A DNA stretch of 61,215 nucleotides, the filler included. It is 12 parts of 12 records of this genome, joined end to end, with 100 filler letters (N's around TTAATTAATTAA, not from the genome) between each part and the next. Parts side by side here need not be neighbours in the genome. Positions count along the whole stretch, not along the records: positions 53,909 to 61,215 come from SRR7504441_26212; 11 more parts are not named here. One strand, given 5' to 3'. Of this stretch, positions 1,350 to 61,215 are shown piece after piece. Position 1 is the first letter of the stretch, and each line of letters starts with the position of its first letter. Made by a program: the position numbers and the translations under genes. The notes under the pieces were generated by a model, which did not search any database, was not told the DNA's origin, and worked only from the letters and a program-made list of their open reading frames with translations.

Positions 1350-3772
1350 TTACATCATCATTTCGTCAAAGCTGCGCTTATGGTACCGGAACTGCGCCAC
1401 CTCTCCTCCCGTCCCGCTCAGCTGGCCGTTGTGCACCGCTCGCACGACTCTGATCAGATCGGACACAGCATAGTCGACCTCAAACGCTGGCTCATCAGAC
1501 AGGAATTGATTAAACTGTAGCGTTGCCCTAGCCGGCCCGACCGAAGCCACCCCCTCGACCACCTGGGCTTCCAGCTGGAGTCCCTCGAGCTCGAGCTCCA
1601 CCCTGTCTCCCGCCCGCAGCCAAGGCTCGAGCGGTGCCTCAAGCCCATTCGGGGCCTGCCCGGCCAGCGTGTCCTGCTCTCCAACCAGCATCTCCCAGGC
1701 AGCTGTCATCTCGCGCTTGCTCATCCCGCCCTCCTGCCTGAGCGCCTGCAGAAACTCGTGCTGGTGCAGCCCACTGCCGCCCCGGAGCACGAGCAGGCCC
1801 TGGCCGAGCCCTTCCACAGCCTGCATCGCGGCCGGCTCGCTCGGAGGCCCGCACTGGCAGCCTGGGAGCAGCTCGGCCAGCCTCGAGCGCGCCGGCAGCT
1901 GGTACAGCACAGCCTGGTCCTGCAGCAGCCCGAGCCCGGCTGACTCCGCCCGGCCGTGGCACGCCATCCTCCAGGTGAGCTTCTGGCCCATCAGCCAGCC
2001 GGGCAGCTCATCCGGACTCAACTGAGGCAGGTCTGTTGCAATCATCTCTTCATGGCTAGTGCCCAGCTCGCCGCCCCGGGCTCGCCGCCAGCGCCGCTTG
2101 AGCCCGTGCAGCCAGCGGGGCAGCTCAGACCGGTCGGCCGGCAGCCTGATGTCGGTCCCAGCTTCGGACGGCGCCATCCTGGGAGGCCCGCGCGGCGGTT
2201 TAGAGCGCGGCCGCTTGATAGCAGAGCCAGCCGGGAGCGCCGGGCTCCGCTGCTGCTGGGAGGCCAGCTTCATCTTGAGCTCAAACTTGTGCAGCAGCGA
2301 GGCCAGGCTGCGGTGCCCTCGGCTGAGCGCCCAGCCGCGCGCAGTACGCGAGCAGCCTTCGTTGGCCCGGCACTGGCCGCGGGCAAGCACATTGGCCCCC
2401 GCCAGAATGAGCGAGCTCGCAACGGACAAATGCCCGTGGAAAGCCGCGTTGATCAGCGGGGTGAACCCGCCCACATCGGCCAGATCTGGGTCGGCCTGCC
2501 CCGGGCTCAGCGCGGGGCGGGGCGGGGCGTGCCTTGTGCTGCTCGAGCAGCTGCTTGACAGTCTTGGTCCGGCCGCAGCGCGAGGCCAGATTGAGCACCG
2601 TGTTCCCTTCGAACCCGACCGAGCCCTCGTGGTTGACAGGGTAACTCACACCGCAGCTCAATTTCTGCGAGAGCATCTTGGAGATCGTGGAGCCCGAGTC
2701 CCGGCTCTCGAGACACTTGTGCATCTTGCGCAGCTGCTCGTCGAAAGCCTGTCCGCCGCTCAGCCGGGCCGGCCGGGGCTGCGGCCTGTGACTGCTTCTT
2801 GAGCTCTCCGTAGTGGCAGTGGAAGAATATGCACATCCACGGCCGGCGCGGTCGGGCCGGCAGGTGCCAGCCGGCTCGTTTGGCGTCCTCCTGACTGAGC
2901 CTCTTCCACAAGTCGGCTCGGTCCTGGACAGTCCGCCAGTCCCTGCACACTTCTGGGAGCAGCGAGGCTGTCTTGACAGGCAGGCTTCTGATCAGGACCT
3001 CCAGCTTGCTGAGTCGCGAGAGCGCCAGGACCGAGCTGCTGTCCACATGCACCTGCGGCCGGGCCCACTTGATCTTGCCCCAGTGGACAGTCTCAGTGGG
3101 CCCGGTGTAGAACGTGGAGACAAGCGACCGGGGCTTGGACGCGAGGCACTGGCCACAGAGGTAGTTGGAGATACGGGCGACGGCCCCCTCGTTGATCCCA
3201 ATGCATTCGCCATGGAACCACTCGCTGCAGCTATCGCACCCGATCATGAATCGGTTGCCAGCCTCCCGCCGGCAGATGCAGTATATTTCCACGTCGGCGG
3301 CCCCAGCGTTGGTACTCTGTTGGATGCACTCGGGGCACATCCACTGCTCCCCCACCGAGGCCGCGTCCTCCGCCGCCACTCCCACGCACCTGCCCGGCCC
3401 ATCAGAGCCCGATCACCCGCGCGCGTACCGGCCGTGGAAGCCGCGGTCGCAGGCCAAGCATTGAAGCCAGAATACGCCCGGGGCAAGCTGCTGCTGGCAC
3501 TGGCCGCACGGCCCACTCGGCCGCGTGGGACTCGACAGGTAATCCGTGTCGGGCGACCGCACCTGACCAGCAGACTTAGCTGCGGAGCAGAGCAGCCGCA
3601 CCTTCTGCGATTCGGGCGCGCCTTCTCCCACCTCTGTGGCCAGACTGCCGGGCGGGACGGCCTCCGCCGTTTGCCCCGGATTCGAAAGGACAGGCGCCGG
3701 ATCGGTCAGACAGCCACCGGGTGCCTCCGTTTGAGTGCCACTCAGGCTGCGCTTGGCGTCCTTCAGGGAGCG
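1350..3772 (-). CDS. PHD-PHD-F-box-like-ankyrin repeat protein, 5'-partial, 4 introns (3563-3601, 3390-3428, 2749-2785 GC-AG, 2496-2532 GC-AG)
   Basis: Splicing joins CGQC..CLACDRGFHGR|CVG..WMCPEC (PHD1), YCICR..MIGCDSCSEWFHGECIG..YLCGQC (PHD2), LEVLIRSLP..VCRDWR..LWKRL (F-box-like), GNTVLNLASRCGRTKTVKQLL and GFTPLINAAFHGHLSVASSLILAGANV (ankyrin). Confidence 0.8.
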
Positions 3773-3872
3773 NNNNNNNNNNNNNNNNNNNNNNNNNNNN
3801 NNNNNNNNNNNNNNNNTTAATTAATTAANNNNNNNNNNNNNNNNNNNNNNNNNNNNNNNNNNNNNNNNNNNN
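3773..3872. other. Artificial contig spacer (N44-TTAATTAATTAA-N44)
   Basis: 100-nt unit repeated identically 11 times; the 12-mer puts stops in all six frames. Confidence 0.98.
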
Positions 3873-7843: not shown

Positions 7844-7943
7844 NNNNNNNNNNNNNNNNNNNNNNNNNNNNNNNNNNNNNNNNNNNNTTAATTAATTAAN
7901 NNNNNNNNNNNNNNNNNNNNNNNNNNNNNNNNNNNNNNNNNNN
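7844..7943. other. Artificial contig spacer
   Basis: N44-TTAATTAATTAA-N44. Confidence 0.98.
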
Positions 7944-14513: not shown

Positions 14514-14613
14514 NNNNNNNNNNNNNNNNNNNNNNNNNNNNNNNNNNNNNNNNNNNNTTAATTAATTAANNNNNNNNNNNNNNNNNNNNNNNNNNNNNNN
14601 NNNNNNNNNNNNN
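14514..14613. other. Artificial contig spacer
   Basis: N44-TTAATTAATTAA-N44. Confidence 0.98.
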
Positions 14614-21413: not shown

Positions 21414-22785
21414 ATGCGGCGCAAGGACATTGGCAAGACGACACTCGAGCGCCAGACCTCGGGGCTGCTGCGCACCGAGGCGCTGATGACCAACCGGAGT
21501 CCGGGCTCGGCCTCCGGGGTGCTCAATCAGTACACTCGGCTGGACGGCGGCCTGGTCGGGCGCGGCAGCCAGTCCGCAAGCGTCAAGGCAGCCGGCCCGG
21601 CCCGGCTAGGGGCGACGGCCTGGGGTCAGCTGTACCGGCACACCAGCGGCCAGCTGTACGCGATTAAGTCCTTCCACCAAGTTCGGCAGGGCTCCAAGCG
21701 GCCGGGAGCCAAGGACTCCCTGGCGCTGCGCCCAAGCCATTCGGAGCGGGAGGAGGTCCTGCGGGAGGCAGACATTATGCGCCGGCTGGACCACCCGAAC
21801 GTGGTCCGGATCGTCGGTCCCCGGCCCGTTCACAGGCCGCTCACGTGGTCGGACAGAGCTAATCGATGACTGCTACGGCGATACCCACACCGACACAGAG
21901 AATGACGCAATGTATATGGTGCGCGCTGACCGGTGGCGGCTGCCAGCCCGGGCGGGCAGGTGATGGAGTATGTCCCGGGCGGTTCGGTGATGGACTTTTT
22001 GACGAGCAGTGCGCCTGTGGGTGAAGAGATGATTAGGCAAGTCGCACGCGATACAATTGCTGGGCTAGGATACCTCCACAAGCAGGGCATACTGCACATG
22101 GATGTCTGTTGCCCACCGCTCCCGCAGCCGAACGGTCGGGCCAGATCAAACCAGCTAATCTGCTCTTTAGTGAGGGTCACGAGCGGACTAAAATATGTGA
22201 TTTCGGCACTTCCACACTCTCAACCAGCTTGGATAACGCAAAGTGCCTGCCGCCCGGGCCCAAAGCCGGATATCTGGGAGCAGGCACGGCACCCAGCTGT
22301 TCCGAGCGCCAGAGCTGATGAGCGGCTTTGAGTTGACTCCGAGCAGGTGAATCGATAAGGTCGGTGGCTTGCTCACCCAGGACAGCTTTGAAGCAGGCAA
22401 GGCGGCTGATGTGTGGTCGCTGGGAGCCACGCTGTTCTTCATGGCCGGAATGGGCCGAGTGTTCACCGAGCCTAAACAAGTATTCGAGGCGCTAAACAAA
22501 GACCCAGTCCCGACAGAGCCTCTGGACGGTAGCTGCAGCTGGCTGTGGCCTACCGAGCCATCCGCAGGGCTCTCTGACGGCCTTAAGGACCTCTTGAACC
22601 GGATGCTGGACCACGACCCGTCGAGTGAGTCCGCGGTTGGCCCGGTTGACGGCTGGGGATATGCAGCTCGGATCGTGCTCAAGGATGCTGCAGCTCACGC
22701 TTGGCTCTCTGACTCCACGTTTGGGATGTTTGACTCCACCGTGCTGGGAGCCCCGGAAGAAAGCTCGGCCGGCATGGACAGATAG
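21414..22785 (+). CDS. Ser/Thr protein kinase (CAMKK/GRIK-like, divergent), about 8 short introns including GC-AG 21588-21629
   Basis: Spliced: VGRGSQSASVK|LY..YAIK, EADIMRRLDHPNVV, YM|VMEYVPGG, YLHKQGILHMD|IKPANLL, KICDFG, GTQLFRAPE, AADVWSLG, RMLDHDPS|TRI. Confidence 0.88.
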
Positions 22786-23280: not shown

Positions 23281-23380
23281 NNNNNNNNNNNNNNNNNNNN
23301 NNNNNNNNNNNNNNNNNNNNNNNNTTAATTAATTAANNNNNNNNNNNNNNNNNNNNNNNNNNNNNNNNNNNNNNNNNNNN
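23281..23380. other. Artificial contig spacer
   Basis: N44-TTAATTAATTAA-N44. Confidence 0.98.
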
Positions 23381-24495: not shown

Positions 24496-25602
24496 TCAAG
24501 CACTGAAATGCTTGTCCAGCCAGCTGAACAACTCCTTCTCGGTCATCCGGATGTGCTCGCCCATGAAATGCTCAAAGAAGTTCTTGCCGGCCTCATCGGC
24601 CGTCCGGAGCCCAAACAAATCTTCCGTGTACCAGCGCGTCTGCTTCATCGGGAGCACGTCGCTGAACTCCTTGCCGGGCTGCTCCGACATGGCACCCCAC
24701 CACTCGCCCTCGCGCGGCCAGACCACCGTGTCGAGGTCGCCCTTGACCCAGACAAACTTGCTAGTCTTGGCCCAGTTGTTCTTGTACTGCTCGTTTACTG
24801 TGGCCTCGTTGTTCCACTCGGCCAGTTGGCTGTGCTTGAGGTAGCCACTTGCGTTGACGCGGGACGGGTCCCTGAAGTAGTCGGCCTGGAAGAGCACGGC
24901 CTGAGAGATCGGGTTGTAGGCGAGCAGTCCGAGCACTTCGGTGAGTGCCTTGCAGACCGGGCCAACCACAGGGAACTGGGGCGAGCACATCGGGAAGGCG
25001 CCCACCCCTGCGTTGATGCCGCAGATGGACATGAAGTTCCGCACCGGAGGGTCGTTGTACTTGGTAATGTATCCCCGGATCACGTTGTTGCCCTGGGAGA
25101 GCCCGAAAGCGTCAAACCCTCCGGACAGCTTCGGGTCGGCCCGCACTTTGGCCGCGAAGGCCTCGACCGAACGGTCCATGCTCTTCAAGAACCCGTCGAT
25201 CGTGTCGGTGAGCCAGCCGTTCCCAGTCGGGATGCACGTGGCGTAGACTCCCAAGTGGTTGCCGGCAGCCTGAGTCACCGACTTCATGCCGGGGTTGAAG
25301 CAGCTGTCGCCCATCCCATGTGCCACCACCAACGGCACGCTGTTGTTGGTGTCTCGCACCGGCCCGACAGTCACGTTCCGGGCGATCTGGGCAAGCGGGG
25401 ACTCGGCCACCAGCCGGGCGAGCTCGGTCGGGTTGGACTCGGCCAGATCCACGAGCTGCTTGAGGTGGGTGGTTTGGCCGATCAGCTGGCGGGCCTCGGC
25501 GCCCAAGTGGCTCATGTCGTAGATCTCGGACACCGGCGCCCCCCGGCCGAGCGCCACAAGGGCCGCAAAGCAGCACGCGAGAGAAAGAGCAGCACGCGAC
25601 AT
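24496..25602 (-). CDS. PPT1: Palmitoyl-protein thioesterase 1
   Basis: Signal peptide; PLVVAHGMGDSCFN, GFDAFGLSQG, PPVRNFMS, DTVVWPREGEWWG, GEHI. Confidence 0.92.
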   Translation of the reverse strand: MSRAALSLACCFAALVALGRGAPVSEIYDMSHLGAEARQLIGQTTHLKQLVDLAESNPTELARLVAESPLAQIARNVTVGPVRDTNNSVPLVVAHGMGDSCFNPGMKSVTQAAGNHLGVYATCIPTGNGWLTDTIDGFLKSMDRSVEAFAAKVRADPKLSGGFDAFGLSQGNNVIRGYITKYNDPPVRNFMSICGINAGVGAFPMCSPQFPVVGPVCKALTEVLGLLAYNPISQAVLFQADYFRDPSRVNASGYLKHSQLAEWNNEATVNEQYKNNWAKTSKFVWVKGDLDTVVWPREGEWWGAMSEQPGKEFSDVLPMKQTRWYTEDLFGLRTADEAGKNFFEHFMGEHIRMTEKELFSWLDKHFSA

Positions 25603-25615
25603 CGTCTCGCTCGTT

Positions 25616-25628
25616 CCGTTGGCAACGG
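25616..25628. promoter_or_regulatory. Inverted pair CCGTTG-G-CAACGG in the bidirectional promoter between PPT1 and 25683
   Basis: Perfect palindrome of the YAACGG core in an 80-nt head-to-head gap. Confidence 0.5.
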
Positions 25629-25682
25629 TCGATAGCAGTTGAGCGCCACAGAGCATCGTCGGAGCGTCGGGTGGAACAAGCC

Positions 25683-27097: not shown

Positions 27098-28166
27098 TCA
27101 TAACTCGAGGTCATCCTTAGGGGCTTTCTTCTCCCGGAGGGCTACACTCACCACCGCCGCCCCCCCGAGTAGAGCCGCCACCACCAGAAGCGTGACCCAC
27201 ACCGGCATATCGAAATGAAACCCGACGTCCGCAACAATCTTGCCAGCGATGAAGCTCAGGACCAATGCAATCCCGATATTCATATAAGCCAAGGAGCTCA
27301 CAGCTTCGACCACCAGAGTATATAACGACCGAAGACACAAGATCGCGCACATGCATGCTGCCCAGACCACCTTCTGGTCAGCGGTCACCTGCCCCGCCAT
27401 TCAGTGACGCCGCAACCGCCGAGCACTTGCCCCGAATATTGCTGGCACGGAGTCTACAGCAAAGACCACATCCGACAGCTCTATCGTGACCAGAACCAGC
27501 AGCAGTGGGGTGGCGCGCATCGCGCCGGTGTGGTCCGACGAGAAGAATTTCGCGCCGTCGTATTCGCCCGACACCGGGGTGACGGCTCGCGCCAGTTGGA
27601 CTACTCTGTTGCCGGACAGGTCGTCGTCGTCATCGTCGTCATCAAACACAAGCATCTGCCATCAGAATCAGCGGGCAGGCTCTGCTGTCACCGGACCTGC
27701 ACCGCAGATACAAACAGCAGCAGCGCACACAGCAGCAGCAGCGGCCTCCAGGCCGAAATAGCCGCGGCCCCCGCGGCCACCATCCCCGCCCGCAGCGCCA
27801 TCGAGCCCAGAATCCCCCTGCCCTGCCCCTCGGCCCCCGATGGCCCGCCAGCCGCTACCAGCGCAGCACGCGTGTCTGGGCCCACTCGCTGGAAAGCTTA
27901 TAGTACCGGAATACTAAGTAGAACGCGAACAGGTTGTCCAGAGACAGGCACATCTCAAGCAAGTAGCCGGTCCAAAATTGCATGCAGGCCGTCCGTCCCC
28001 TAGTCTTGTAGAGTACGCCCGCCACCCCGGCGGCTACGCACACCCCGAGGAGCACCCACCCCACGGCGGCTCGTGTTGACACCGGCTGGTCCGTCTGGCC
28101 CAGCACGATCGGACCAGGCTTGATCGGGGTCCGCTCGTCGACGTCGGTCGGCTCGTCGCCCAGCAT
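27098..28166 (-). CDS. TerC/Alx family integral membrane protein, 3 introns (27389-27430 is GC-AG)
   Basis: [69 protein letters not shown]. Confidence 0.9.
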
Positions 28167-28228: not shown

Positions 28229-28328
28229 NNNNNNNNNNNNNNNNNNNNNNNNNNNNNNNNNNNNNNNNNNNNTTAATTAATTAANNNNNNNNNNNNNNNN
28301 NNNNNNNNNNNNNNNNNNNNNNNNNNNN
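28229..28328. other. Artificial contig spacer
   Basis: N44-TTAATTAATTAA-N44. Confidence 0.98.
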
Positions 28329-31779: not shown

Positions 31780-31879
31780 NNNNNNNNNNNNNNNNNNNNN
31801 NNNNNNNNNNNNNNNNNNNNNNNTTAATTAATTAANNNNNNNNNNNNNNNNNNNNNNNNNNNNNNNNNNNNNNNNNNNN
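31780..31879. other. Artificial contig spacer
   Basis: N44-TTAATTAATTAA-N44. Confidence 0.98.
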
Positions 31880-35947: not shown

Positions 35948-36047
35948 NNNNNNNNNNNNNNNNNNNNNNNNNNNNNNNNNNNNNNNNNNNNTTAATTAAT
36001 TAANNNNNNNNNNNNNNNNNNNNNNNNNNNNNNNNNNNNNNNNNNNN
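35948..36047. other. Artificial contig spacer
   Basis: N44-TTAATTAATTAA-N44. Confidence 0.98.
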
Positions 36048-36143: not shown

Positions 36144-37166
36144 ATGCACCCTGCGGCGAAGCAGGTGGCGGCGGCGGCCGAGCGGCTGGGCTCGCGGGTG
36201 GTGCGGACCCCTTTGCTCGAGGCCCGGCTGCTCAACGAGCTGGTGAGCGAGCGGCTCGGGCTGGCCGGGCTCCGTGTGTTGGTCAAGGCCGAGTGCCTGC
36301 AGCACACTGGGGCGTTCAAGTTCCGAGGGGCCACCAACCGGCTGCTCGAGCCGGACATGACCGCCCAGGCCCGGGCACGCGGGGTGGTCGCATTCTCCAG
36401 TGGCAACTTCGCCCAGGCGCTCGCCCTGGCCTCCAGCCTCACCGGGACTAAGTGCACCATCGTCAGCCCGCACGATGCCCCCCCCCTCAAGCTAGAGCGG
36501 ACCCGGCTGTACGGCGCGCAGGTGCTGCTCTCGACCGCAGCTGAGGGCGAGAACCGGGAGGTGGCCGCGTCGCGGATGGCCCAGGAGTTCGCCGAGGCGG
36601 AGGATGCCAAGCTGCTCCACCCGTTCGACGACTGGCCGGTTATTTACGGGCAGGGCACGCTCGCCCTCGAGCTGTTCGAGCAGGCCGCCGCGGCCGGGCT
36701 GCCAGCGGTCTCGACACTGATAGTGCCGTGCGGTGGGGGCGGGATGCTGGCCGGGTGCAGCCTGGCGGCCGAGCTGGCTTCGCCCTCGACCAGGCTGTTC
36801 GCCGTAGAGCCGGAGGGGTATGATGATCACAGGCAGAGCTTCGAGGCCGGCCGGCGGGTGCCGCTCTCTGGGGCGCCGGCCTCGACGGTGTGCGACGCGC
36901 TGCAGGCCAGCGCCCCGGGGGAGCTTACCTGGGCGGTGAACGGAGGCCGGATAGCCGGTGCGCTAGCACAAAGCGATGCGGCTGCAAAGGAGGCGATGGC
37001 GATCGCATTCGCCGAGCTGAAGCTTGTGCTGGAACCATCCGGCGCGCTGGGGCTGGCGGCGCTGTTGAGTGGGAACGTGCCGGTGAAGGCGGGCGATGCG
37101 GTTGCAGTGGTCGCTTGCGGAGGGAACATCGACCTCGAAGGATTCATAAACATGCTCAAAAACTAA
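36144..37166 (+). CDS. PLP-dependent serine/threonine dehydratase / serine racemase family enzyme
   Basis: KAECLQHTGAFKFRGA, SSGNFAQA, HPFDD..GQGT, PCGGGGMLAG, KLVLEPSGA, CGGN; intronless. Confidence 0.92.
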   Translation: MHPAAKQVAAAAERLGSRVVRTPLLEARLLNELVSERLGLAGLRVLVKAECLQHTGAFKFRGATNRLLEPDMTAQARARGVVAFSSGNFAQALALASSLTGTKCTIVSPHDAPPLKLERTRLYGAQVLLSTAAEGENREVAASRMAQEFAEAEDAKLLHPFDDWPVIYGQGTLALELFEQAAAAGLPAVSTLIVPCGGGGMLAGCSLAAELASPSTRLFAVEPEGYDDHRQSFEAGRRVPLSGAPASTVCDALQASAPGELTWAVNGGRIAGALAQSDAAAKEAMAIAFAELKLVLEPSGALGLAALLSGNVPVKAGDAVAVVACGGNIDLEGFINMLKN

Positions 37167-37276: not shown

Positions 37277-40242
37277 TTAGTTACACGTGCTCAAGACTTG
37301 TTGAGCAGTGGTGATCAGATCATCGCAGTGGTCGGGCGACTTGTGCAAAAGCCTCACTTCTTGGCATTTCTCAAGAACGCAGCGCGGACTCACCCTCGCG
37401 GCCTCCTTCAGCACCTGCAACGAAACGGTTCAGACGATCACGGCTCGACCACAGGTCACCTTAGTCACGGCGTCCCTGATCTCAGGCCTTGGGTCATCCA
37501 GATGTATCACAAGTGTTTCGACCACTGAGTCAATGTGCTCCTAAACACATCCAAAAAGTCACCAACTGCAATAACGCGGCGCCAACCTGAGCGACGCCTT
37601 CCGTTAGGTAGCAGAAGTAGTGCACCAAACCCTCGAGTGACACTAATCTGACGTCGTCCAGCACATCATCAAGCCTGTGGCCGAGTGTCAGCACGCTCCC
37701 GATGGCTCAACACCTCTTGGACAGCGTCGGCCACAGCTCGAGCAGCAGCTCCGTGCTCACTGTGCCGCCTCGGCCGAGGCTAGAGAGCAGCTCCCCCAGG
37801 CAAATAGTGGACGACCTGCCCAGCGGCTCAGCTGCACTGGCGTAAGCAGGGTCACCGCCGGAGCTCCGGACACCAGTCGTCGTCCACGCCTTGCTGCGAG
37901 CAGTCCAAGATGATCCGAACCATCTGCTCGTCATCCACCAGCTCTTTCATGCAGTTCGCCTTGAGCGTCCGCCTGAGCAGCTCCATGGCCGCCTCGCGCT
38001 TCCGTTCGACTATCCGTCCTGATGACCACTTGGCTGACGGCTGGACGATGTCAATTAGAACGTCCCGATAGCTCGGGCGGAGTGCTTGGCAAATCAGCTG
38101 GTCGGAGCACATGGCGCAGAGCATCATCACCACCCGCAGCTGGACCTCCTGCTCGATCTCGGCCTGTCCGGCCACCACCGCCACCACAGCCTTGACAATC
38201 GGTTTGATCTGGTCGCTCAGGCTGGCTGGATCTGCCAGAAGCAGCACTGCCTCCACTTGAGACAGTTCGGGCGAGTCCAGGCTCCACGGGCACGCCCCCC
38301 CGGCGCCCGCCCAGCCGAGCAGCCGGTCCAGACAGCTGGCGGCACACGCGCCGTACAGCGCCGGCACCGAGGGCAGCCCGAGCAGTTGAGCGAGCTGGAG
38401 CGAAGTCTGATCAATCTGCACTGGGAGTCAGCCCACGAGCCGGCTGCGGCACACCTCGGTGCACAGCTCGGTGTTCTCGACTGCGGCCGCCCGGAGCATT
38501 AGCACGGTCTGAAACAATTGCTCGGCGTGCTCGCTGGCCGCTGCTTGGATGTTCTCGAGCACAGAGGCGACGCAGTCGAGGACCTGGGCATGTACCAGAC
38601 CCGAGGCCTCAAAAGTGACTAGCGGGCTGCTGAGCGCCGGCAGCAGCTCTGGGAGTAACGGCAGCAGCTCGTCCGGAGCGCAGCTGGCCAGCAGCGACGA
38701 AACCACCTGCAGCTGCGACACGCGCACGCTCTGCTGGTAGGAACCTGTCCCACCCACTCTGCCCCGACCGCGGGCAAGCAGCTACTGTTGGTGAGCTCAG
38801 CTCTCATCACGGGAATCCACATGGAGGCCTCGGCCATCTCGCCCAGCATCTCCGCGGTCTCGAATCCCACCGCGGCCACCGCGTCGTCGTCGTCGCGGCA
38901 CAGCTTGCAGAGCGCCTCCAGCACGGTCGCAGTGTGCTCTCCTAGCTCATGACCAACCCAGCGACAGAGCACCCCCAGTGTCTTGCCGGCCTTGCCCCGG
39001 GTGATCGCCCGCCACTCGGCCATGTCCGTCACCACTTCGGCCACCAGCGCCGGTAAGTTGCCCAGCACGAGCTGTTCAGCCGCCTCAAGAGGGTCGGCAC
39101 CTCCCGTTATGCTCGCAGCTGCCTTGGCGAGCGCACCCTCTGCGTAAGTGGAGACTTCCTCCAGCTCGTCGGTCTCGCCCATCAGCAGCTGGAGCACTAG
39201 CTCGGCCAGCTGCGGCGCGGCGGCTCCCTGAACCAGCCAGCCGAGCACTACCTCTAGCAAGCACGAGCGCATCTGCCCAGAGTGTCAGCGTGCCAGCTAC
39301 CCAGCCGCTCGCACCCGTGGGTGCCTGTCGAAATGCACTTTCTTAACAAATTTGATCATCTCCGGCCAGCACTTGGCTGGAGCCGCAGGCATAACCCCTC
39401 CGATCGCTTTGAGCGCTGCCTCACGCACCTGGCCTCGAGCTTGCACCCGCCCAGCGGCAGCAGCGCACCTTGGCGTGCTGGTGCCCAACAGCCGAGCTCG
39501 GCTTGTACGCCAGTCCGTCGAGCAGAGCCTCCCACTGCTCCTCGGAGAGCTCCCGGCCCGCGAGCAGCTGGGCGCATCTGCACCCGCTGATCTTGACAGC
39601 AGGGCATTGGTCGAGGCAGGCTGCGCCGACCGCGGATACCAGTGGCTCCGGCTCCGGGTCGGGTGGGCCAGCCAGCGCCGCCTCGAGCAGCTCGGCTAGC
39701 TGGGCCCGCACCTCCTCGACAGGCTCCGGCTCCAGCAGCCGCCCGGCGGCCGCCCGGCCCAGCTCCGCAGTCAGCTCGCCCTGCTCCTCCGGACTTCGCC
39801 CGTCGACCGCGTGCGGGACTAGGCGGCAGAGCGACAGCGCAGCGTACTCGCGGCAGCCCGAGTTGGGGTCGGTTAGCCGTTCGATCAGGCAGCGGAGGTC
39901 CTGCCAGCACTGCCGCGCTGCCAGGGCGGCAAGCGCCGGGTCAGCGAGGACAGATGAGAGCTGTTTGAGCGCCCCGCGGCGGTCGGCCAGCTCGCCGGAG
40001 ATTACTGAGCGGGTGGCCCTGTGCACCGTCTGGACCAGGTTGTCGGCCGTGACACCGGGCTCGACAGGACGCTCCTCGGGCGCAGGGGCCGGGGCCGGGC
40101 GCTCCTTGATCAGCGGACCGGTCCGGTTGGCCGGCTTGCGCTTGGGCTGGCGTGAGCGGGCGTCCTCCGCCTGCAGCCACAGTCAGCCAGGCCCCGCCGA
40201 TCGGCGCGCCTTGAGCTCAGCGAACAGCTCGTCAATCGACAT
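37277..40242 (-). CDS. DNAAF5: Dynein axonemal assembly factor 5 (HEATR2)-like HEAT-repeat protein, about 8 introns (first, 40171-40209, is GC-AG)
   Basis: EPVEEVRAQL, HQHAK|VR, FDRHPR, AKWSSGRI..R, SK|RLDDVLDDVR, LVIHLDDP, C-terminal HKSPDHCDDL. Confidence 0.8.
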
Positions 40243-40254
40243 TCCCCCGCGTGT

Positions 40255-40354
40255 NNNNNNNNNNNNNNNNNNNNNNNNNNNNNNNNNNNNNNNNNNNNTT
40301 AATTAATTAANNNNNNNNNNNNNNNNNNNNNNNNNNNNNNNNNNNNNNNNNNNN
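40255..40354. other. Artificial contig spacer
   Basis: N44-TTAATTAATTAA-N44. Confidence 0.98.
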
Positions 40355-46290: not shown

Positions 46291-46390
46291 NNNNNNNNNN
46301 NNNNNNNNNNNNNNNNNNNNNNNNNNNNNNNNNNTTAATTAATTAANNNNNNNNNNNNNNNNNNNNNNNNNNNNNNNNNNNNNNNNNNNN
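46291..46390. other. Artificial contig spacer
   Basis: N44-TTAATTAATTAA-N44. Confidence 0.98.
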
Positions 46391-50281: not shown

Positions 50282-50381
50282 NNNNNNNNNNNNNNNNNNN
50301 NNNNNNNNNNNNNNNNNNNNNNNNNTTAATTAATTAANNNNNNNNNNNNNNNNNNNNNNNNNNNNNNNNNNNNNNNNNNNN
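50282..50381. other. Artificial contig spacer
   Basis: N44-TTAATTAATTAA-N44. Confidence 0.98.
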
Positions 50382-53808: not shown

Positions 53809-53908
53809 NNNNNNNNNNNNNNNNNNNNNNNNNNNNNNNNNNNNNNNNNNNNTTAATTAATTAANNNNNNNNNNNNNNNNNNNNNNNNNNNNNNNNNNNN
53901 NNNNNNNN
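53809..53908. other. Artificial contig spacer
   Basis: N44-TTAATTAATTAA-N44. Confidence 0.98.
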
Positions 53909-54626
53909 CCACCTGGAGGAGGCACTCCGAGTGAACGTAGTGGGCGCCCACTGGTGATCGCCCGGGCGTTGGATATCACGCTGCTTTTCGTGTTCTCTGG
54001 ACTGCAGCTGGTTCGGGCGCCGAGCGATGGACGGTCTCACATCCCAGCGTTTGGCCTACCCGCGGAGTCCTCTGGTGATCGAGCGCGTGATGCAGCGCTG
54101 CTCCCACAATTCTAGCCCCAAGTCGCCCACTGTTCTGAGCCCGGCGCAGCTGATCCGGGAGAACCGCTGGCACTCACCACCACCACCACATTTAGAGCTC
54201 TCGCCAATCACCTCTCCACGGCGAGCATGGCCATCACAGCACCCGCAAGGCGGATGTGGCAGCCCTGCACGACGGATAGCACACGCTAACAGGGCGTACA
54301 GCCCCAGTTGCAACAGCCCCTCCTTATCACCGCCCACACTAAGTGAGTCGCCGGCTGGACCCTCCGACAACTCTCCGGACTGCTCGCCAACTATGAGATC
54401 AGCGGTATACCGTAACCGGCCATCTACATTAGATGTCCGCGGTGTGGACTGGAATTGCTCACAATCTCGCAGTCCACTTCGTTTGGGGCTACCTGTGGGG
54501 ATGGCGGCCATGGACCTATATAACCCCTTGACTCCTAGCCCGCCGTCTACGTCTCCCACGACAATGTCATCTCCCGGTCACGCTTGGGCGAGCATGACTA
54601 CCCACGCAGGAGACAGGCCACTCTAA
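53909..54626 (+). CDS. Ser/Pro-rich hypothetical protein, probably the 3' part of a gene
   Basis: 199-aa SP-rich ORF ending before an AT-rich spacer. Confidence 0.5.
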
Positions 54627-54713
54627 ATATCAATGTACGAGTACATCTATTAAACAGTGTTTTTAAATTTTAAAAATTAGCCAGACTGGTCAACACGAAT
54701 ACAAAATTGTTAT

Positions 54714-57245
54714 TCAGTTAGAATCTACATGTACAAGCGGCGGGAAAGCTGGCTTGGGTGGGCTCAGGTTTCTACCAATGACCTCTGGCATGCATGCTTT
54801 ACTAACAGTTGCATTGAACATTGGACGCTGCCCCCCAATTGGTGCTGTTGCTGGAGGCCTTGGTGTGCAAGGATGTCTTCGCAGCCATCTAGAGCTCACA
54901 GTATAGCTTGCTCCCTTCGCCCGCGTCTTCGAACACGCGTGCTCCTGGTTTAACGGCTCTGGTGGTACTGCAGCAAACTCATCTCGCCCCTCTGTGTGAT
55001 TGCTGCTCTGCATGCGACGTGTCGCCCTTGATGTCTGTGTTGCCCCTGGTGCATCCTTCTGCTTTACAATTGTTTGATCCATGTCTGGATTCCTATGTGA
55101 AGACCTTTCTGGATCACGTGTGCCCATTGTGCGATCTTGAGCCGCCTCTGTTCTACATGGTGTTTGCTGTGTCTCGTTGGAAATTACCCTCCCTGTCGGA
55201 GAATTCCTACTTTGTTGCACATGCAAATTGGAAGCCGTATTGGGTCTTTTACGGGTGGGAACGCCACGCCGGAGTCTGCCCTTGGAAACCAATGGCGGTG
55301 TCTCCTTTTTAGCGGTCTCGCAGTGCTGGTTCTCTAGCTCTGTTATCTCTGCCTTTAGTCTGCTTATCTCCTCTACCGCTTCAGGGCTGTTTTGTAGGTC
55401 TCCTGCTTTTGCCCGTGCCTCTTGAAGCTGTGCCTTAGTGTCTCCTATCTGTTGGTTGAGTTGCTTAGCCTTACCTTTGGGATTGACATCGAACGATATT
55501 GTGGGCTTGCTTAGCTGTACAACCGGATGCTTGGCATTCCAGTAGAAATCTCTCAGCGTGTTCCAGTGCAGAAATAACTCCATAAGTTTGACATTTTTTG
55601 CTGCCTTACAAATAAGTGGGACAGCAGCTACTTGACAAAGAGACCAGGTGTGCCACTTCTGCCAGGCATCTGCAACCGCATGCTGTAAAAAGCGAAATGC
55701 CATCTTCTGAAACTTATGGTACATCATAATAAGTTCCTGGACAAATTCCTGAATAGCTCTGAATCCCTTTCTTATTGATCGCTGGGCAGATATTCTGGAA
55801 GACTTTGCCATGAGCTCCTTATTCATTGACACTGATTTCTGGTTCAGCTGCAATTGAGTAACTCCCTTGCCAAGCCAAAAGCGCTGCACAACAGTCTCAA
55901 GCTCTTGCTGCTTGCAACATGCCCAGAACTCAGCCAGCCATGAGTTCCAGGTCTGTGAAGCCTGCTGATTCCTAAGGTGCCCACAAGTCCACCGCAGCAG
56001 GCGGGCCTTGCGTCTGTGAGCCAAGTAGTCGCGCCAGAGGTCCATGGCTTGTGAGACATGCTTGTGCAGCATCTTGCGTAGCACCTCTTGCATGGTCCTC
56101 AGGCCCAGTGCCATTCCTCGCCAGGCTCGCCAAGCAGCTGTTCTAGTGTAGATGTGAGGCCATGTGCCTTCAAACTCCCGACAACGTGCCTTCAGTTGCA
56201 AAGTGCGCACCGCCTTCAGCCGCCAAGGCTCGACGGATCGTCGGAACCATGTGAGCATGCACTTCCACACCGCAGTGCACTTTAGGGCCTCTGATGGATG
56301 GGGTAACCGGCTCAGTCCAACCCAGTGCTGAAGCCGTCTCCTTAAATCCGCCCGATTCCAGCGATGCATCTGCAGTCTGAGGGTGAGCAGCAAGTCGGTT
56401 ACCCGCTCAGCACTTGCAAGCACCGAGCGCAGCTGCTGCGTTTGCTGCCGCGTGACTCCTAAAGCCATGCATTGGCGGGCTCGCTTGGCCATCTTGCTCC
56501 ACCCCAGCCAGTGCAGCGTCTTGTATTCAAGCGTCGACCGATGGTACTTGTGCACCCTCCGAAGCAGTCGCTCATTCGTTCGATTCTTAAAAGTCAACAG
56601 CAGCCGGAGTCTCGTCATTCCTGTCTGATACAGTACTCGCCGGATCACTTGTCCCAAGGTGGGAACTTTTCGCAGCTGGGACAGTCCCCTCCGTCTCAGC
56701 GGAGCGTGAGCGCCCCGCCGGATGGCGAGGACGGGCTTGCGGTAGGCAGTTCTCCAGGCCGTGTATCCATGGAGCAGCCGGACCGAGACCACCGGCCGAC
56801 CCAAATCAATGAACCGCGCCCAGTCCACCATCCGGCATTGCCGTGCGTGGCGCATCGCGTTCCGCTTGAGGGTCAGCGTCAGGTTCATTTGGGAGACGGG
56901 CTCGTCGCCCAGCCTGTCGATCAGATCAAACAGCGCCTGCCTGTTCTCGGCGGCAGCCAGCTGCTTCTCAACGCCCTCAAGCCGCCGGCGGAGCGCGAAT
57001 GTCCGGCCGGGCGGCGGGACAGGGACCGCAGTGAGGCTCTCGACCAGCTTGGACTTGAGCTCGTCTATTTTGTCGGTGAACCCTCGGATCCGATGGCTCA
57101 GCTCGGTCGCGAGCGGGGTTGGGGTCGCCAGCAGCTGGCCGGGTGGAGCCACCCCTGGGGTGTCGGGCGCCGTGGACCAGGGTCGGGCCCACTGTGGTAG
57201 CACCGTGATGCTCAGCCGCCGCCCGTCCCGGGGTCCCTCCTCCAT
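54714..57245 (-). CDS. 843-aa helical protein with spaced Trp repeats (SFI1-like, putative centrin binding)
   Basis: AAWRAWR, QAMDLWRDY, QTWNSWLA, ADAWQKWHTW, FLHWNTLR; disordered tail. Confidence 0.6.
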   Translation of the reverse strand: MEEGPRDGRRLSITVLPQWARPWSTAPDTPGVAPPGQLLATPTPLATELSHRIRGFTDKIDELKSKLVESLTAVPVPPPGRTFALRRRLEGVEKQLAAAENRQALFDLIDRLGDEPVSQMNLTLTLKRNAMRHARQCRMVDWARFIDLGRPVVSVRLLHGYTAWRTAYRKPVLAIRRGAHAPLRRRGLSQLRKVPTLGQVIRRVLYQTGMTRLRLLLTFKNRTNERLLRRVHKYHRSTLEYKTLHWLGWSKMAKRARQCMALGVTRQQTQQLRSVLASAERVTDLLLTLRLQMHRWNRADLRRRLQHWVGLSRLPHPSEALKCTAVWKCMLTWFRRSVEPWRLKAVRTLQLKARCREFEGTWPHIYTRTAAWRAWRGMALGLRTMQEVLRKMLHKHVSQAMDLWRDYLAHRRKARLLRWTCGHLRNQQASQTWNSWLAEFWACCKQQELETVVQRFWLGKGVTQLQLNQKSVSMNKELMAKSSRISAQRSIRKGFRAIQEFVQELIMMYHKFQKMAFRFLQHAVADAWQKWHTWSLCQVAAVPLICKAAKNVKLMELFLHWNTLRDFYWNAKHPVVQLSKPTISFDVNPKGKAKQLNQQIGDTKAQLQEARAKAGDLQNSPEAVEEISRLKAEITELENQHCETAKKETPPLVSKGRLRRGVPTRKRPNTASNLHVQQSRNSPTGRVISNETQQTPCRTEAAQDRTMGTRDPERSSHRNPDMDQTIVKQKDAPGATQTSRATRRMQSSNHTEGRDEFAAVPPEPLNQEHACSKTRAKGASYTVSSRWLRRHPCTPRPPATAPIGGQRPMFNATVSKACMPEVIGRNLSPPKPAFPPLVHVDSN

Positions 57246-57308
57246 AGCCTGCCGGAAGGGACCCCGTGTGCTACTGCAGCTGCCTTGCTCCGAGTCCGTT
57301 GCAATCCA

Positions 57309-58574
57309 ATGGCGAGCCGGACAGCGTTAGCACGGGCGTGGCGCGCGGGGACCTTGGCGGCTGTTCGCGCACCACGCCCGGCGGGATCAGTGCGAGGGTG
57401 CTCGTCCGTGGCGCCGGCGCCAGCCGACGGTGCCCGTCGCGCCGCCCGGCGCCCTCACCGCGTCGGCAGTCGACGCGCGCCGGACGATCCAGCCAATCCT
57501 GGGAAACTACCCGATCATGTCCCCCGAGTCGTACGTGGCCGCATCCGCCAGCGTGATCGGTCAGGTCCCGTGCCACCCCGCGCCGCCGTCCCGCGACACC
57601 CCGGGGGCAGGTAGAGATCTACGATCGAGCCGTGGTCTGGTATAACGCTGTTGTCCGCGGTGAGCCGCCCCTCCCGCTGCGATGCGCGCCCGTGGCACTG
57701 GTGGCATTAGCAAAGTCCTGGGAGACACCCCGCCCCGTTTGCGGGCTTGTGCGCTCGACTATTTGCCCGCGCTGTCTGTAGTTGGGTGGGCTGATCCGGG
57801 TGCGGTGCGCAGGAGACTTGAATACCATCACTATCGGTGCATTCTCGCACGTAATGGATGGTGCGGTGGTGCTCTCTGATAAGTCGCTACAGCCTGGTGC
57901 CTGGCCCGCGGTCTGAGCCTCGTGCTGATGCTGTCGCAGGCTTTGAGGCCTCGACACACATCGCGAGCAATGTTCGCATCGGTGCCACGCTCTGGATCCA
58001 GCGCTGCTCGCTCTAATCCCCGGTTCAGGCTGCCGGGCTCTGGTCAAAGGCTGCACTATCCTGGATAACGCCACCATCGGGGACGGGGCTGTGGTAATGG
58101 AGGTGCTTGGCCAGCTGCATTCAGGCACGACTCTGGTCTGTGTGCAGGGGGCTCTCGTGGAGGAGGGGGCTGTGGTCGAGCCGGGGAGCGTAGTGCCCCA
58201 AGGCGCGCGGATCCCAGCTAAAGAGGCGAGCTGGCCCACAGTCACCGCACGGTCTGAAGGGCTGGTAGGTGTGGGGCGGCAGCCCGGTCCAATTTGTCCG
58301 CAAGCTCGAGTACAAGGAGCTTACTGCGCCGGAGTACGCGTGAGTGCCCTCCTGCCGTGTCCCGTAGAGCACGCTAGCGCCGTGCGCCCGCTGCAGCGGA
58401 CGGCTAATTTGTGTCTCTGTGCCAGCACTGCAGAACTGTGGAACTTGGCCCTCGAGCATCAAGGCGAGCTACTGCCTCGAGGCTCGGCATACCAGCAGGT
58501 CCTGTTGCCGGATTGTCTTGTGAGCTGATTTATGTTGCTGGTTGCAGCTGGAGGACGCTCAGAATGCTTGCTAA
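57309..58574 (+). CDS. Mitochondrial gamma-carbonic-anhydrase-like protein (complex I CA module), about 9 introns (58226-58268 is GC-AG)
   Basis: Arg/Ala presequence; YVAASASVIGQ|V, VWYNAVVRG|DLNTITIG, GALVEEGAVVEPGSVVPQGARIPAKE|VWGGSPVQFVRKL. Confidence 0.88.
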
Positions 58575-58839
58575 GCGATTGGGATTTCACAAAACGTACG
58601 AGCAATGATTGTTGAGCATAATTGCCCTCGCTCATTCGCCCATTTTTACAATTAGTACCATGCACCTTATGTGATGTGTTACAATGCATTAGGAGAGACT
58701 CACTGATCGTGCCGTTGAAGTAATAAAGGGTGGTAATTTATATTCACCTAACTCTAGTCATTATAATTATATTTTTTGTTTGGGATCATGCTCTACGATA
58801 CGTAATCGTTGTTAATTGTTGTACCGTGGCACATGCCTT

Positions 58840-59360
58840 TTACTTGTAAGTCCGATAAGTTCGTCCATGGAAAGCAACGTTCCCATAAAAGTGAATCTTG
58901 TTCTTTGCGTCTAGTTTGATTGATTCATCCTCCCCAACACCATTGGAAAAACTAATGTAAAAATTGCCATCCCCTCGCACAGCAAACTTCCAGGTTGCTT
59001 GTTGTCGATTCCTTAAACTGAATGAGACCTGCAGTCCAATCCCTTGAGATTGAGGCATATTATATCAAGCCAACCTAGTTAGCCAGGCAAGAGTGTGCGG
59101 TTACCTCTTTCCCCCCCAGAGATGACAGTCTTAATCCGAGATCTTCATCAGAGAAGTAGGAAACTAGTGGCTCTGCCGTCTCGCTCACTCCGACTGCTAT
59201 ATCTGATGCACTTGGCACTTCTAGTATTCGAGTACCCAGACTCACGTTGGCTGCACGGACTGATCGCGTGCTTACAGGGGCACTATAGCCATCTAGCTTG
59301 AGTTTGGTGGTGGACTTGAAATAACTTGGTTGTTTGTAGAAGATAGCACTACCACCTTCC
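58840..59360 (-). CDS. Hypothetical beta-rich protein, last exons only; start not found
   Basis: Exons LGLRLSSLGGKE|VSFSLRNRQQATWKFAVRGDGNFYI..IHFYGNVAF joinable by a GT-AG intron. Confidence 0.35.
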
Positions 59361-59848
59361 TAACCTTTGGCGCTCTGCGCGACAGACCTTAAACCCTTCT
59401 CCGCTCTGCTCACCGCACAGCTCAGCCAAACGGGTAGGTGGCAAGGGCCACCTGCAGTAGCACCACCCCTAAGCTACCCCCAGAGCGCTTGGGAGTCCGG
59501 CATCCGCAGTGCCGATAGGCCAGCTCGCGCGTTCAAACGGTGAGTGATTTGGATGCCGGGATGCACTCTAATGCACTCGGCTTGATCCCGTGGACACGAC
59601 GGACCAGGTGGCGAGGAGCTCGGTGGCTGAGTTGTGTGTCGCCGGGCCTAGTGGCTGTCCAGAACTTGCGGAACCTGGCGCCACGCGGGCGCGCGGGCGT
59701 CAGTTCAAGACTCAGCGCATCAGCTGTACATGTCCGTTGGTTTGGTCGAGCTGCCACGGGCGGAATCGAGCGGCGCGTCCGGACAGCCACAGCAGAGGAC
59801 AGCCGCAGCAGCACTGCAGCAGCTCGACGCGGGGAGGGCAGTCGCAGC

Positions 59849-61192
59849 ATGGGGGCCAGGAAGCCCGGGGTCGAGATCATCGAGCTGAAGGCAGCCGGCC
59901 TGGCGGCTCGCCGGCTCACGCGCCGGCGCAGGACGACCAGATGACCTTTCTGATGACCGACGCCGACGCCAGCTTCGCCAACTCGCTGCGGCGGACCATA
60001 ATCTCGGACGTGCCCACGCTGGCGATCGATCTGGTCGAGTTTGAAAACAACAGCTCGGTGGTCCGCGGGCACAGCCGCGGGCCGAGCGGGGCGGGCAGGT
60101 GCTGAGCGACGAGTTTATCGCGCACCGGCTGGGGCTGATCCCGCTGGTGAGCAAGCGGGTGAACGAGTTTAAGGACAACCGGGAGTGCACCAACTGCCAC
60201 ACCTTCTGCCACGAGTGCAGCGCCGAGTTCAGTCTGCACGCCTCCTGCACCGACAACGAGACGCTCAACGTCACATCAAAGGACTTCTTCTGCCAGGTCC
60301 GGGCGGCCCGCGGCCCCGGACTGAGCCGGCTGGTGCAGGACGTCGACCGTGTGTGCCCGGTGGACCTGGTAGACGACCCGGCCAGCCAGGAAGGCGCCTG
60401 GCTGCGGCGCGCGCAGCGCTGATCGGTCTGTCGACAGAGGGCAGCGGGATCCTGATTGTCAAACTGCGGAAAAACCAGGAGCTGAAGCTGCGGGCGATCG
60501 CCAAGAAGGCGCGCCCAGTCCGCCGGCCGACCGCATGACCGCTGCTGGGTACAGGGAGTGGGCAAGGAGCATGCCAAGTGGGCGCCCGTGTCTGTGTGCA
60601 ACTTTTGGTGACACCCAGTCCCGGCCGGGCTCGAGCCCAGGGCAGGCCGGAGCCGGTGGTCGAGATCAACCCGGTGCTGTCGGCGCTGCTCACAGAGGAG
60701 GAGAAGAGAGAGTGGTGCCAGTCGTGTCCTGCGGGAGGCATTACGTTCAACGAACTCACTGGGTGCATCGCGGCGGCGGCCGGGCTGACGGGGCTGCAGC
60801 GAGTTTGAGATGGTGAATGTGAATAAGGTGGCCCAGTCCAAGGACTTCCTAGACTACTCCAAGCTGCTGGTGCCGGCCGGTCTGGTCCCTGCAGCTGAGT
60901 AGTGGCGTGCAGCTGGCAAAGATCCACGAAAGATCGCAGGTGCCTGCAGAGCACATGTATGACGAGCTAGTAGAGCAGTCTTTCCGGGATGACCGATTCT
61001 ACTTCTACATCGAGGTGATGGGGCGGATGGGCGGCTTTGACCAGGGCTGGTCAGACCACCAAGGCGCTGGCTCCTGAGGAGTGTGTGGCGGCCGCGATCA
61101 ACGTACTCAGGTCCAAGATCAACACGATCAACAAGGACTTGCTGAACGAGGGCGAGGATTCCGGTTACCACGGAATTTCGGCCATTGGCTGA
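59849..61192 (+). CDS. RPB3: RNA polymerase II subunit RPB3, about 10 introns (GC-AG at 59891-59931, 60394-60437, 60509-60554)
   Basis: DASFANSLRRTIISDVPTLAIDLV, NSS|VLSDEFIAHRLGLIPL, C-C-C-C zinc site, ILIVKLRKNQELKLRAIAKK|GVGKEHAKW, FYFYIE|TTKALAPE. Confidence 0.96.
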
Positions 61193-61215
61193 CCGTGTCC
61201 GAATGGCTAGCTATG

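Follow-up and report, generated by a model that had tools for sequence, protein, structure and literature searches.

The RPB3 gene and the make-up of the window

The window analyzed here is a stretch of DNA of 61,215 bases. Close to its end, at positions 59849..61192 on the plus strand, lies a gene for RPB3 that is interrupted by nine introns, three of the type GC-AG and six of the type GT-AG. The exons match the Pfam profiles RNA_pol_L and RNA_pol_A_bac, and the gene model is supported by RNA joints and by an alignment with homologues. For this alignment the nine introns were removed in silico and the product was aligned to eight homologues, which had been found with the help of one exon.

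Intron 1 (59891..59931, plus strand, 41 nt) has the donor AAG/GCAGCC and a CTCAC branch 13 nt before its 3' end. A joint at 59888>59930 in the transcript contigs of run X1 leaves GC..AG as the sole possible reading, and the protein junction IIELK/DDQM aligns without a gap; a homologue reads ILELK-EDTM at this position. The same holds for intron 4 (60394..60437, plus strand, 44 nt, donor AAG/GCGCCT), where GC..AG is the only way to read a joint at 60391>60436 in run X3. Intron 5 (60509..60554, plus strand, 46 nt, donor AAG/GCGCGC) is fixed by the junction AIAKK/GVGKEHAKW, which is gapless against the proteins P0121-P0127 and identical in six full-length homologues. A piece of record 11 from X3 stops at 60506, and 39 letters of the record remain beyond it; the joint lies outside the joints listed, and 60506 is the place where the left-aligned joint of intron 5 is expected. 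All three GC junctions are gapless in the homologue alignment, and the GC introns within 59891-60554 are fully verified. The alignment also places one of the GT introns, with its donor at 60058. A search of metagenome contigs with P0121 as query found one locus, a contig of 1,024 bp that contains no intron and is therefore a cDNA; a genomic relative for comparing intron positions in RPB3 was not found among the metagenome contigs with this query.

The window is not a single molecule but is composed of 12 contigs of 3.4-8.7 kb. These are separated by 11 spacers (44 N + TTAATTAATTAA + 44 N) at positions 3773-3872, 7844-7943, 14514-14613, 23281-23380, 28229-28328, 31780-31879, 35948-36047, 40255-40354, 46291-46390, 50282-50381 and 53809-53908. 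The fact that all 11 spacers are identical indicates a chain of 12 separate contigs, in which the linkage between contigs is not real; the chain is probably a binned assembly. The spacer points cut genes. The GC content of the 12 contigs is 56-65% per contig, third codon positions are strongly GC-rich and many very short introns interrupt the genes.

Among named relatives, haptophytes give the best protein matches. An intronless gene for a PLP-dependent enzyme (36144-37163) has its top named relative in Prymnesium polylepis (74% identity; Ectocarpus 62%). The product of a palmitoyl-protein thioesterase gene (24499-25656) is 63% identical to a protein from Scyphosphaera, 57% to one from Emiliania huxleyi, 54% to one from Aureococcus and 53% to one from Triparma; metatranscriptome proteins reach 81-86% identity. 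Because of these relatives we regard the host as an uncultured marine alga with affinity to haptophytes, an assignment suggested by a few best protein hits rather than by a tree or rRNA. Eight marine metatranscriptome runs (three studies) contain 5-12% of the words sampled from positions 54000-61215.

RNA evidence for introns with GC donors

The RNA evidence consists of Logan contigs, not raw reads, from four metatranscriptome runs (X1-X4), which were aligned to the contig at positions 53909-61215 only. Fourteen contigs aligned, nine of them with a likeness of at least 99%. Among the joints listed there are at least 15, namely 14 on the plus strand and one on the minus strand, the latter for the GT..AG intron 59029-59104. 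Readings that are equivalent under a shift were resolved for the 14 plus-strand joints and for one further joint that is implied by an 11-letter loose end. A GT..AG reading is possible for 12 of these 15 resolved joints and impossible for three. In the latter (58226-58268, 59891-59931, 60394-60437) the sole reading with a G at the start and AG at the end is GC..AG. The three joints come from three runs of two studies, with a likeness of 95-100%.

A sequence-only reading of the window had claimed nine introns with a GC at the 5' end, four of which (58226, 59891, 60394, 60509) are covered by this RNA test; the other five are located on other contigs. Segments with GC..AG ends are missing from the mature message, as in U2-type introns, in three cases according to RNA and in two according to protein or profile continuity.

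One of the RNA-supported GC introns belongs to a second gene on the same contig (57306..58574, plus strand). We call its product gamma-carbonic-anhydrase-like, a putative name prompted by its hexapeptide-repeat look alone. The gene has eight introns supported by RNA, seven of the type GT-AG with lengths of 40-153 nt and one of the type GC-AG, all backed by joints and contig pieces in X2, X3 and X4. The GC-AG intron is number 6 (58226..58268, plus strand, 43 nt, donor GAG/GCGAGC). It was found spliced in X2 and X3, that is in two studies, with a joint at 58223>58267. Record 14 of X4 retains it; this contig is unspliced across 58169-58339, while the two next GT introns are removed. Mapping RNA had been proposed as a check on the junctions. 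The RNA contigs confirmed three of them, whose GC..AG joints have no GT reading; one contig shows retention at 58226-58268. This intron hence occurs in nature both spliced and retained. The retention, in one contig, is possibly a sign that splicing is weaker at GC donors. The same gene contains two longer GT-AG introns among those of about 40 nt, both verified by RNA (57660-57812, 153 nt; 58340-58425, 86 nt). Since they are spliced among such short neighbors, long introns are evidently tolerated.

Between the two GC-rich genes lies an island of low GC content (43% GC; 58716-59354, minus strand), which is transcribed and contains a GT-AG intron of 76 nt (59029-59104). At 58716 the transcript ends in a loose stretch that resembles poly(A). 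After splicing it carries an open frame of 144 codons, which enters from the 5' end and uses AT-rich codons; this frame has no match in Pfam or Atlas. A contig of 1,709 letters from X1 continues past 59354 into unlike sequence.

A further alignment is limited to 33 bases. Record 7 of X2 matches positions 59792-59824, which precede the start codon of RPB3, and is unlike the window on both flanks; it may be a fragment of a relative or of a repeat.

Verified and candidate GC introns on other contigs

The best supported GC intron outside the RNA-covered contig is located in a gene for a TerC protein (27389..27430, minus strand, 42 nt, donor GGG/GCAAGT). Its flanking exons match the contiguous profile positions 98-123 and 124-177, so that the junction is exact at 123/124. 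Retention of the intron would, judging from the sequence, put an in-frame TGA into the gene. The earlier statement that several junctions are fixed by conserved protein motifs, with RPB3 and TerC as examples, was thus borne out at both sites. A GT alternative in TerC, 27389-27457, was rejected; it would remove nine residues of the contiguous profile match.

A second intron on the minus strand (2496..2532, 37 nt) lies in a gene for a protein with PHD and ankyrin domains and is probably GC-AG. The Ank profile has coordinates on both exons. With the GC model the ankyrin repeats are spaced 34 residues from T to T, compared with 25 if the GT alternative is used; the Pfam Ank repeat has a length of 33 residues. 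These features of the predicted protein support a GC-AG intron. Another candidate on the same strand (2749..2785, 37 nt) has the donor CAG/GCCGCA and a CTGAG motif 11 nt before a CAG acceptor; it is proposed from its anatomy. Among the 150 matches listed for the PHD exon against protein representatives, none spans the junction at 2749 or at 2496; all cover the PHD region only.

A protein kinase gene harbors a further candidate of the type GC-AG (21588..21629, plus strand, 42 nt), which is in frame and without a stop. The match to the Pkinase profile begins at the first residue after this segment, which is a weak hint that it is an intron. A branch motif is absent from it, and a search of PDB sequences with a kinase that reads through 21588-21629 gave no matches. 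The fourth of these introns is a candidate in a DNAAF5-like HEAT gene (40171..40209, minus strand, 39 nt). It follows a first exon of 11 codons. A CTGAC motif stands 12 nt ahead of its CAG acceptor, and only sequence downstream of the segment matches TPR_DNAAF5.

As a separate observation, the introns 60763-60799 and 40171-40209, which are located on different contigs, have a common 3' half composed of GGCTGAC, three to four bases and GGCTGCAG. This reflects either a strong extended branch and acceptor consensus or shared ancestry.

The protein kinase gene also contains two GT-AG introns of 41 nt each (22104-22144 and 22243-22283), with T and A, respectively, at position -1. Their removal restores the kinase motifs HMD/IKPANLL and DFG...APE. 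A gene finder that allowed GC donors missed 22243-22283 and misplaced 22104-22144. The GC introns 22087-22127 and 22206-22243 that it proposed are wrong, since it is the two GT introns that restore the motifs.

Taken together, all nine claimed segments read GC..AG. Five of them (58226, 59891, 60394, 60509, 27389) are verified and the intron at 2496-2532 is supported; the other three are candidates. It is necessary to consider whether the GC boundaries are artefacts, with true GT donors nearby or with coding sequence that is simply retained. A gene finder restricted to GT threads alternative GT introns through six of the nine sites, the segment 21588-21629 can be read through without a stop, and one RNA contig does retain 58226-58268. 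On the other hand, GT readings are excluded by the RNA joints at three sites. The GT alternatives 60349-60416 and 60518-60554 conflict with RNA and with the conserved motif, and the one in TerC would cost the nine residues of the profile match. The artefact explanation is refuted for the five verified sites, and as an account of the GC boundaries as a whole it is extremely improbable.

Frequency of GC donors

Of the 18 introns verified in the contig at 53909-61215, four belong to the type GC-AG. Among the 14 GT introns in this count, 13 are verified by RNA and one by protein alignment; for the GC introns these numbers are three and one. Since the figure comes from one contig, with two genes and one spacer transcript, it is a rough one. 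Even so, the earlier claim of a GC-AG frequency far above the usual rate agrees with this count from one contig; the share reported for plants and metazoans is 0.3-2%, and for Cyanidioschyzon 4% (bioRxiv 10.1101/2024.10.30.620910, in the parts considered here). If GC-donor-rich algae are taken as those with a GC-rich genome and a GC-AG share of at least 10%, the present genome is one of them, with contigs of 56-65% GC and 4/18 introns in one contig.

The frequency was also approached ab initio. A Viterbi gene finder was run with GT and one extra donor dinucleotide, with a weak and then with a trained intron model. With the trained model the gain per 1000 sites was 18.6 for GC, compared with 20.7 for CC, 19.1 for CA and 22.7 for AA. 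The test with decoy donors does not single out GC and so cannot provide an estimate of the GC share.

Donor context, branch motif and intron length

The donors of the 14 verified GT introns were compared with those of the nine claimed GC introns. Nearly all verified introns come from two genes, and the set of nine was picked by eye, with a possible bias towards AG/GC. The nine introns, which measure 37-46 nt, run from GC to AG; the exon before them ends in AG in eight cases and in GG in one. A G at position -1 is present in 13/14 GT donors and in 9/9 GC donors. At position +3 the GT donors have G in ten cases, C in three and A in one.

The sequence-only reading had noted that most GC donors lack AAGT at +3 to +6, which is correct, and had taken the weakness of these positions as a trait of the GC introns. 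The latter view does not hold. The mean match to RAGT at +3 to +6 is 1.57 of 4 in GT donors and 1.89 in GC donors; because GT donors are as degenerate at these positions, the weak consensus belongs to the genome at large and does not set the GC introns apart. Donors like GTGCCC, which are typical of the GT introns, agree poorly with the consensus, and it follows that for every intron the extended pairing with canonical U1 is weak.

The contrast between GT and GC donors is located in the exon. An A at position -3 occurs in 1/14 GT donors and in 6/9 GC donors (Fisher p=0.005); for an A at position -2 the numbers are 5/14 and 8/9 (p=0.029). The mean number of exon-side matches to the donor consensus is 2.67 in GC introns and 1.79 in GT introns (p=0.017). 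When only the four best-verified GC introns are considered, the A at -3 has p=0.019, while the A at -2 with p=0.08 is not significant. Counted by hand, the matches at the seven other consensus positions sum to about 4.6 in GC donors and about 3.4 in GT donors. The lone GC donor without the exonic AAG bias, that of TerC, reads GGG/GCAAGT, the classical compensated form. The claim that the exonic AG is all that GC donors have in common is therefore correct for the AG, which precedes eight of the nine, but it overlooks the A at -3 in six of nine and the full AAGT of the TerC donor. In this small and partly hand-picked sample, the C at +2 is compensated at other positions.

A motif of the form CTNAN or TTGAC, with its A 11-15 nt before the 3' end, is present in seven of the nine GC introns, and a branch-like motif in 11 of the 14 GT introns; by these raw counts both classes have the kind of branch site that is found in U2-type introns. 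A length of 37-49 nt is found in 11/14 GT introns and in 20 of the 23 listed introns overall; the remaining GT introns measure 76, 86 and 153 nt. The mean GC content of the introns is 0.79 in the GC class and 0.71 in the GT class. Introns of the U12 type are marked by the donor RTATCCTT, which is highly conserved, and by a branch that resembles TCCTTAAC. Neither a U12-type donor nor a U12-type branch is present in the donors and interiors of the nine GC introns. An Rfam scan of the window gave 0 families and no snRNA.

The GC introns have the same architecture as the GT introns, which we count in favor of an ordinary origin. We conclude, with a probability of roughly 0.8, that they are GC-AG introns of the ordinary U2 type (major spliceosome) and that the nuclear genome to which they belong is that of an uncultured marine alga rich in GC. 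The intron signals would be minimal in this genome: usually a G before the cut, followed by G, by T or C, and mostly by G, then a CTNAN branch about 11-19 nt before a YAG acceptor, in introns that are mostly 37-49 nt long and very GC-rich. A strong mutational pressure towards GC may have turned the T at +2 into C in a sizeable minority of the donors. The pairing lost at +2 would be offset elsewhere, nearly always by an exonic AAG and once by an intronic AAGT. A 5' arm of the conventional U1 type would require just such a pattern, if the snRNPs work in the usual manner. GC donors would presumably be spliced less efficiently.

The data on donors and lengths also have to be weighed for a modified splicing system as proposed by the sequence-only reading, in which the 5' site is chosen by a ruler from the branch site together with an exonic G or AG, and in which the pairing of U1, U5 and U6 is variant or reduced. 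The degeneracy of +3 to +6 in both donor classes, the tight distribution of lengths and the nearly invariant G at -1 are all compatible with such a system. However, splicing also removes GT introns of 76, 86 and 153 nt, all of them verified, so a fixed ruler is not obligatory. The two GT introns of the kinase gene, which are anchored by the kinase motifs, carry T or A at -1, which means that an exonic G is not obligatory either; and the GC donors show a conventional pattern of compensation. Taking both sides together, we regard a modified system as quite unlikely; the sequence-only reading was correct on the frequency of GC donors and on the weakness of the intronic signals, but went too far in proposing a special mechanism.

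Related to this is the idea of a haptophyte-like lineage with introns of about 41 nt, in which the 5' site has been reduced to G/GY and the U1 arm is divergent or dispensable. The choice of the donor would then depend on pairing at the end of the exon (U5 or U1 with AAG) and on a branch site that lies at a short, constant distance. We consider this idea, including its account of donor choice, unlikely. If it were true, the system would be a GC-rich counterpart of the tiny-intron systems of ciliates and nucleomorphs.

Similarity between the introns raises another explanation, namely that the tiny introns, including those with GC donors, are recent copies of a mobile, introner-like element that brings along its own weak donors. 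The pairwise local similarity among 20 introns has a mean score of 9.06, compared with 7.88 (sd 0.15) in controls with shuffled interiors; the top score of 20 was reached in 0/200 shuffles, and two GC introns both start with GCAGCCGGCC. But the mononucleotide shuffle destroys the dinucleotide content as well as the common branch and acceptor signal, and what the best pair shares is essentially GGCTGAC...GGCTGCAG, which are themselves the signals for splicing. Neither a longer family nor terminal repeats were seen among the compared introns. A mobile origin is very unlikely.

Comparison with known splicing systems

The proposal to compare the window with haptophytes and pelagophytes proved useful, because both groups are already known as rich in GC donors. 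In the haptophyte E. huxleyi, GC donors were found in 56% of 241 hand-mapped junctions, in 61% of Cufflinks junctions and in 65% of 270 inspected RNA-seq junctions (Feldmesser et al. 2014, PMC4028052). The acceptor is AG in 98.5-100%, intron retention is the main alternative event, and the authors ascribe the shift in donors to the GC content of 65% in the genome (PMC4028052). As far as the parts of that paper considered here go, the present genome resembles E. huxleyi in being GC-rich, in having GC donors well above 1% and nearly invariant AG acceptors, and in intron retention. It is unlike E. huxleyi in the share of the GC donors. These are the majority (56-65%) there and a minority here, with 4/18 in the verified set and about nine of 70-80 introns in the earlier count. 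In the text of the searched literature, including passages of the haptophyte genome papers PMC12480563, PMC4580454, PMC11347835 and PMC8379373, no statement on the length of haptophyte introns was found.

The pelagophytes Aureococcus anophagefferens and Pelagomonas calceolata have 14-17% GC-AG introns, which has been tied to their high GC content; their introns have a mean length of 103-177 bp and number 0.1-0.9 per gene (bioRxiv 10.1101/2024.10.30.620910). Compared with what this source states in the parts considered, the share of GC-AG introns in our contig is of the same order and the genome is likewise GC-rich. The introns of the window are different in that they measure about 40 nt and number up to nine per gene, and the best protein matches are to haptophytes, with Aureococcus at 54%.

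The introns can also be compared with more distant systems. Classical GC-AG introns of animals and plants compensate the C at +2 by a better consensus at other donor positions. The introns in the window are like these in being U2-type, in the C at +2 and in the better consensus elsewhere, and the GCAAGT of TerC is the textbook form. They are unlike them in that the compensation is mostly exonic (AAG), that +3 to +6 are rarely AAGT and that the frequency is 10-20 times higher. Ciliates and the nucleomorphs of chlorarachniophytes have tiny introns with GT donors in AT-rich genomes. The introns described here share with them the narrow range of lengths near the spliceosomal minimum; they differ from them in their GC content of 71-79% and in the sizeable share that has GC donors.

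Implications

Since richness in GC donors is known from haptophytes and from pelagophytes, the window provides one more example of a known phenomenon rather than a novel splicing system; taken alone, this stretch raises no fresh question about the spliceosome. A possible peculiarity of this genome is that GC donors are combined with introns of about 40 nt, up to nine of them in a gene, and with a compensation that is mostly exonic. The window offers a small, clean set of junctions in which compensation on the exon side is displayed.

The findings have a practical consequence. The gene model restricted to GT broke both RPB3 and TerC, and gene finders of this kind would misbuild a fifth of the junctions in such organisms. 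This matters for the annotation of eukaryotic metagenome bins from the ocean. For the biology of these algae, the host of the window would be the second or third lineage where the T at +2 of the donor has been eroded by GC pressure, in this case at a nearly minimal intron length.
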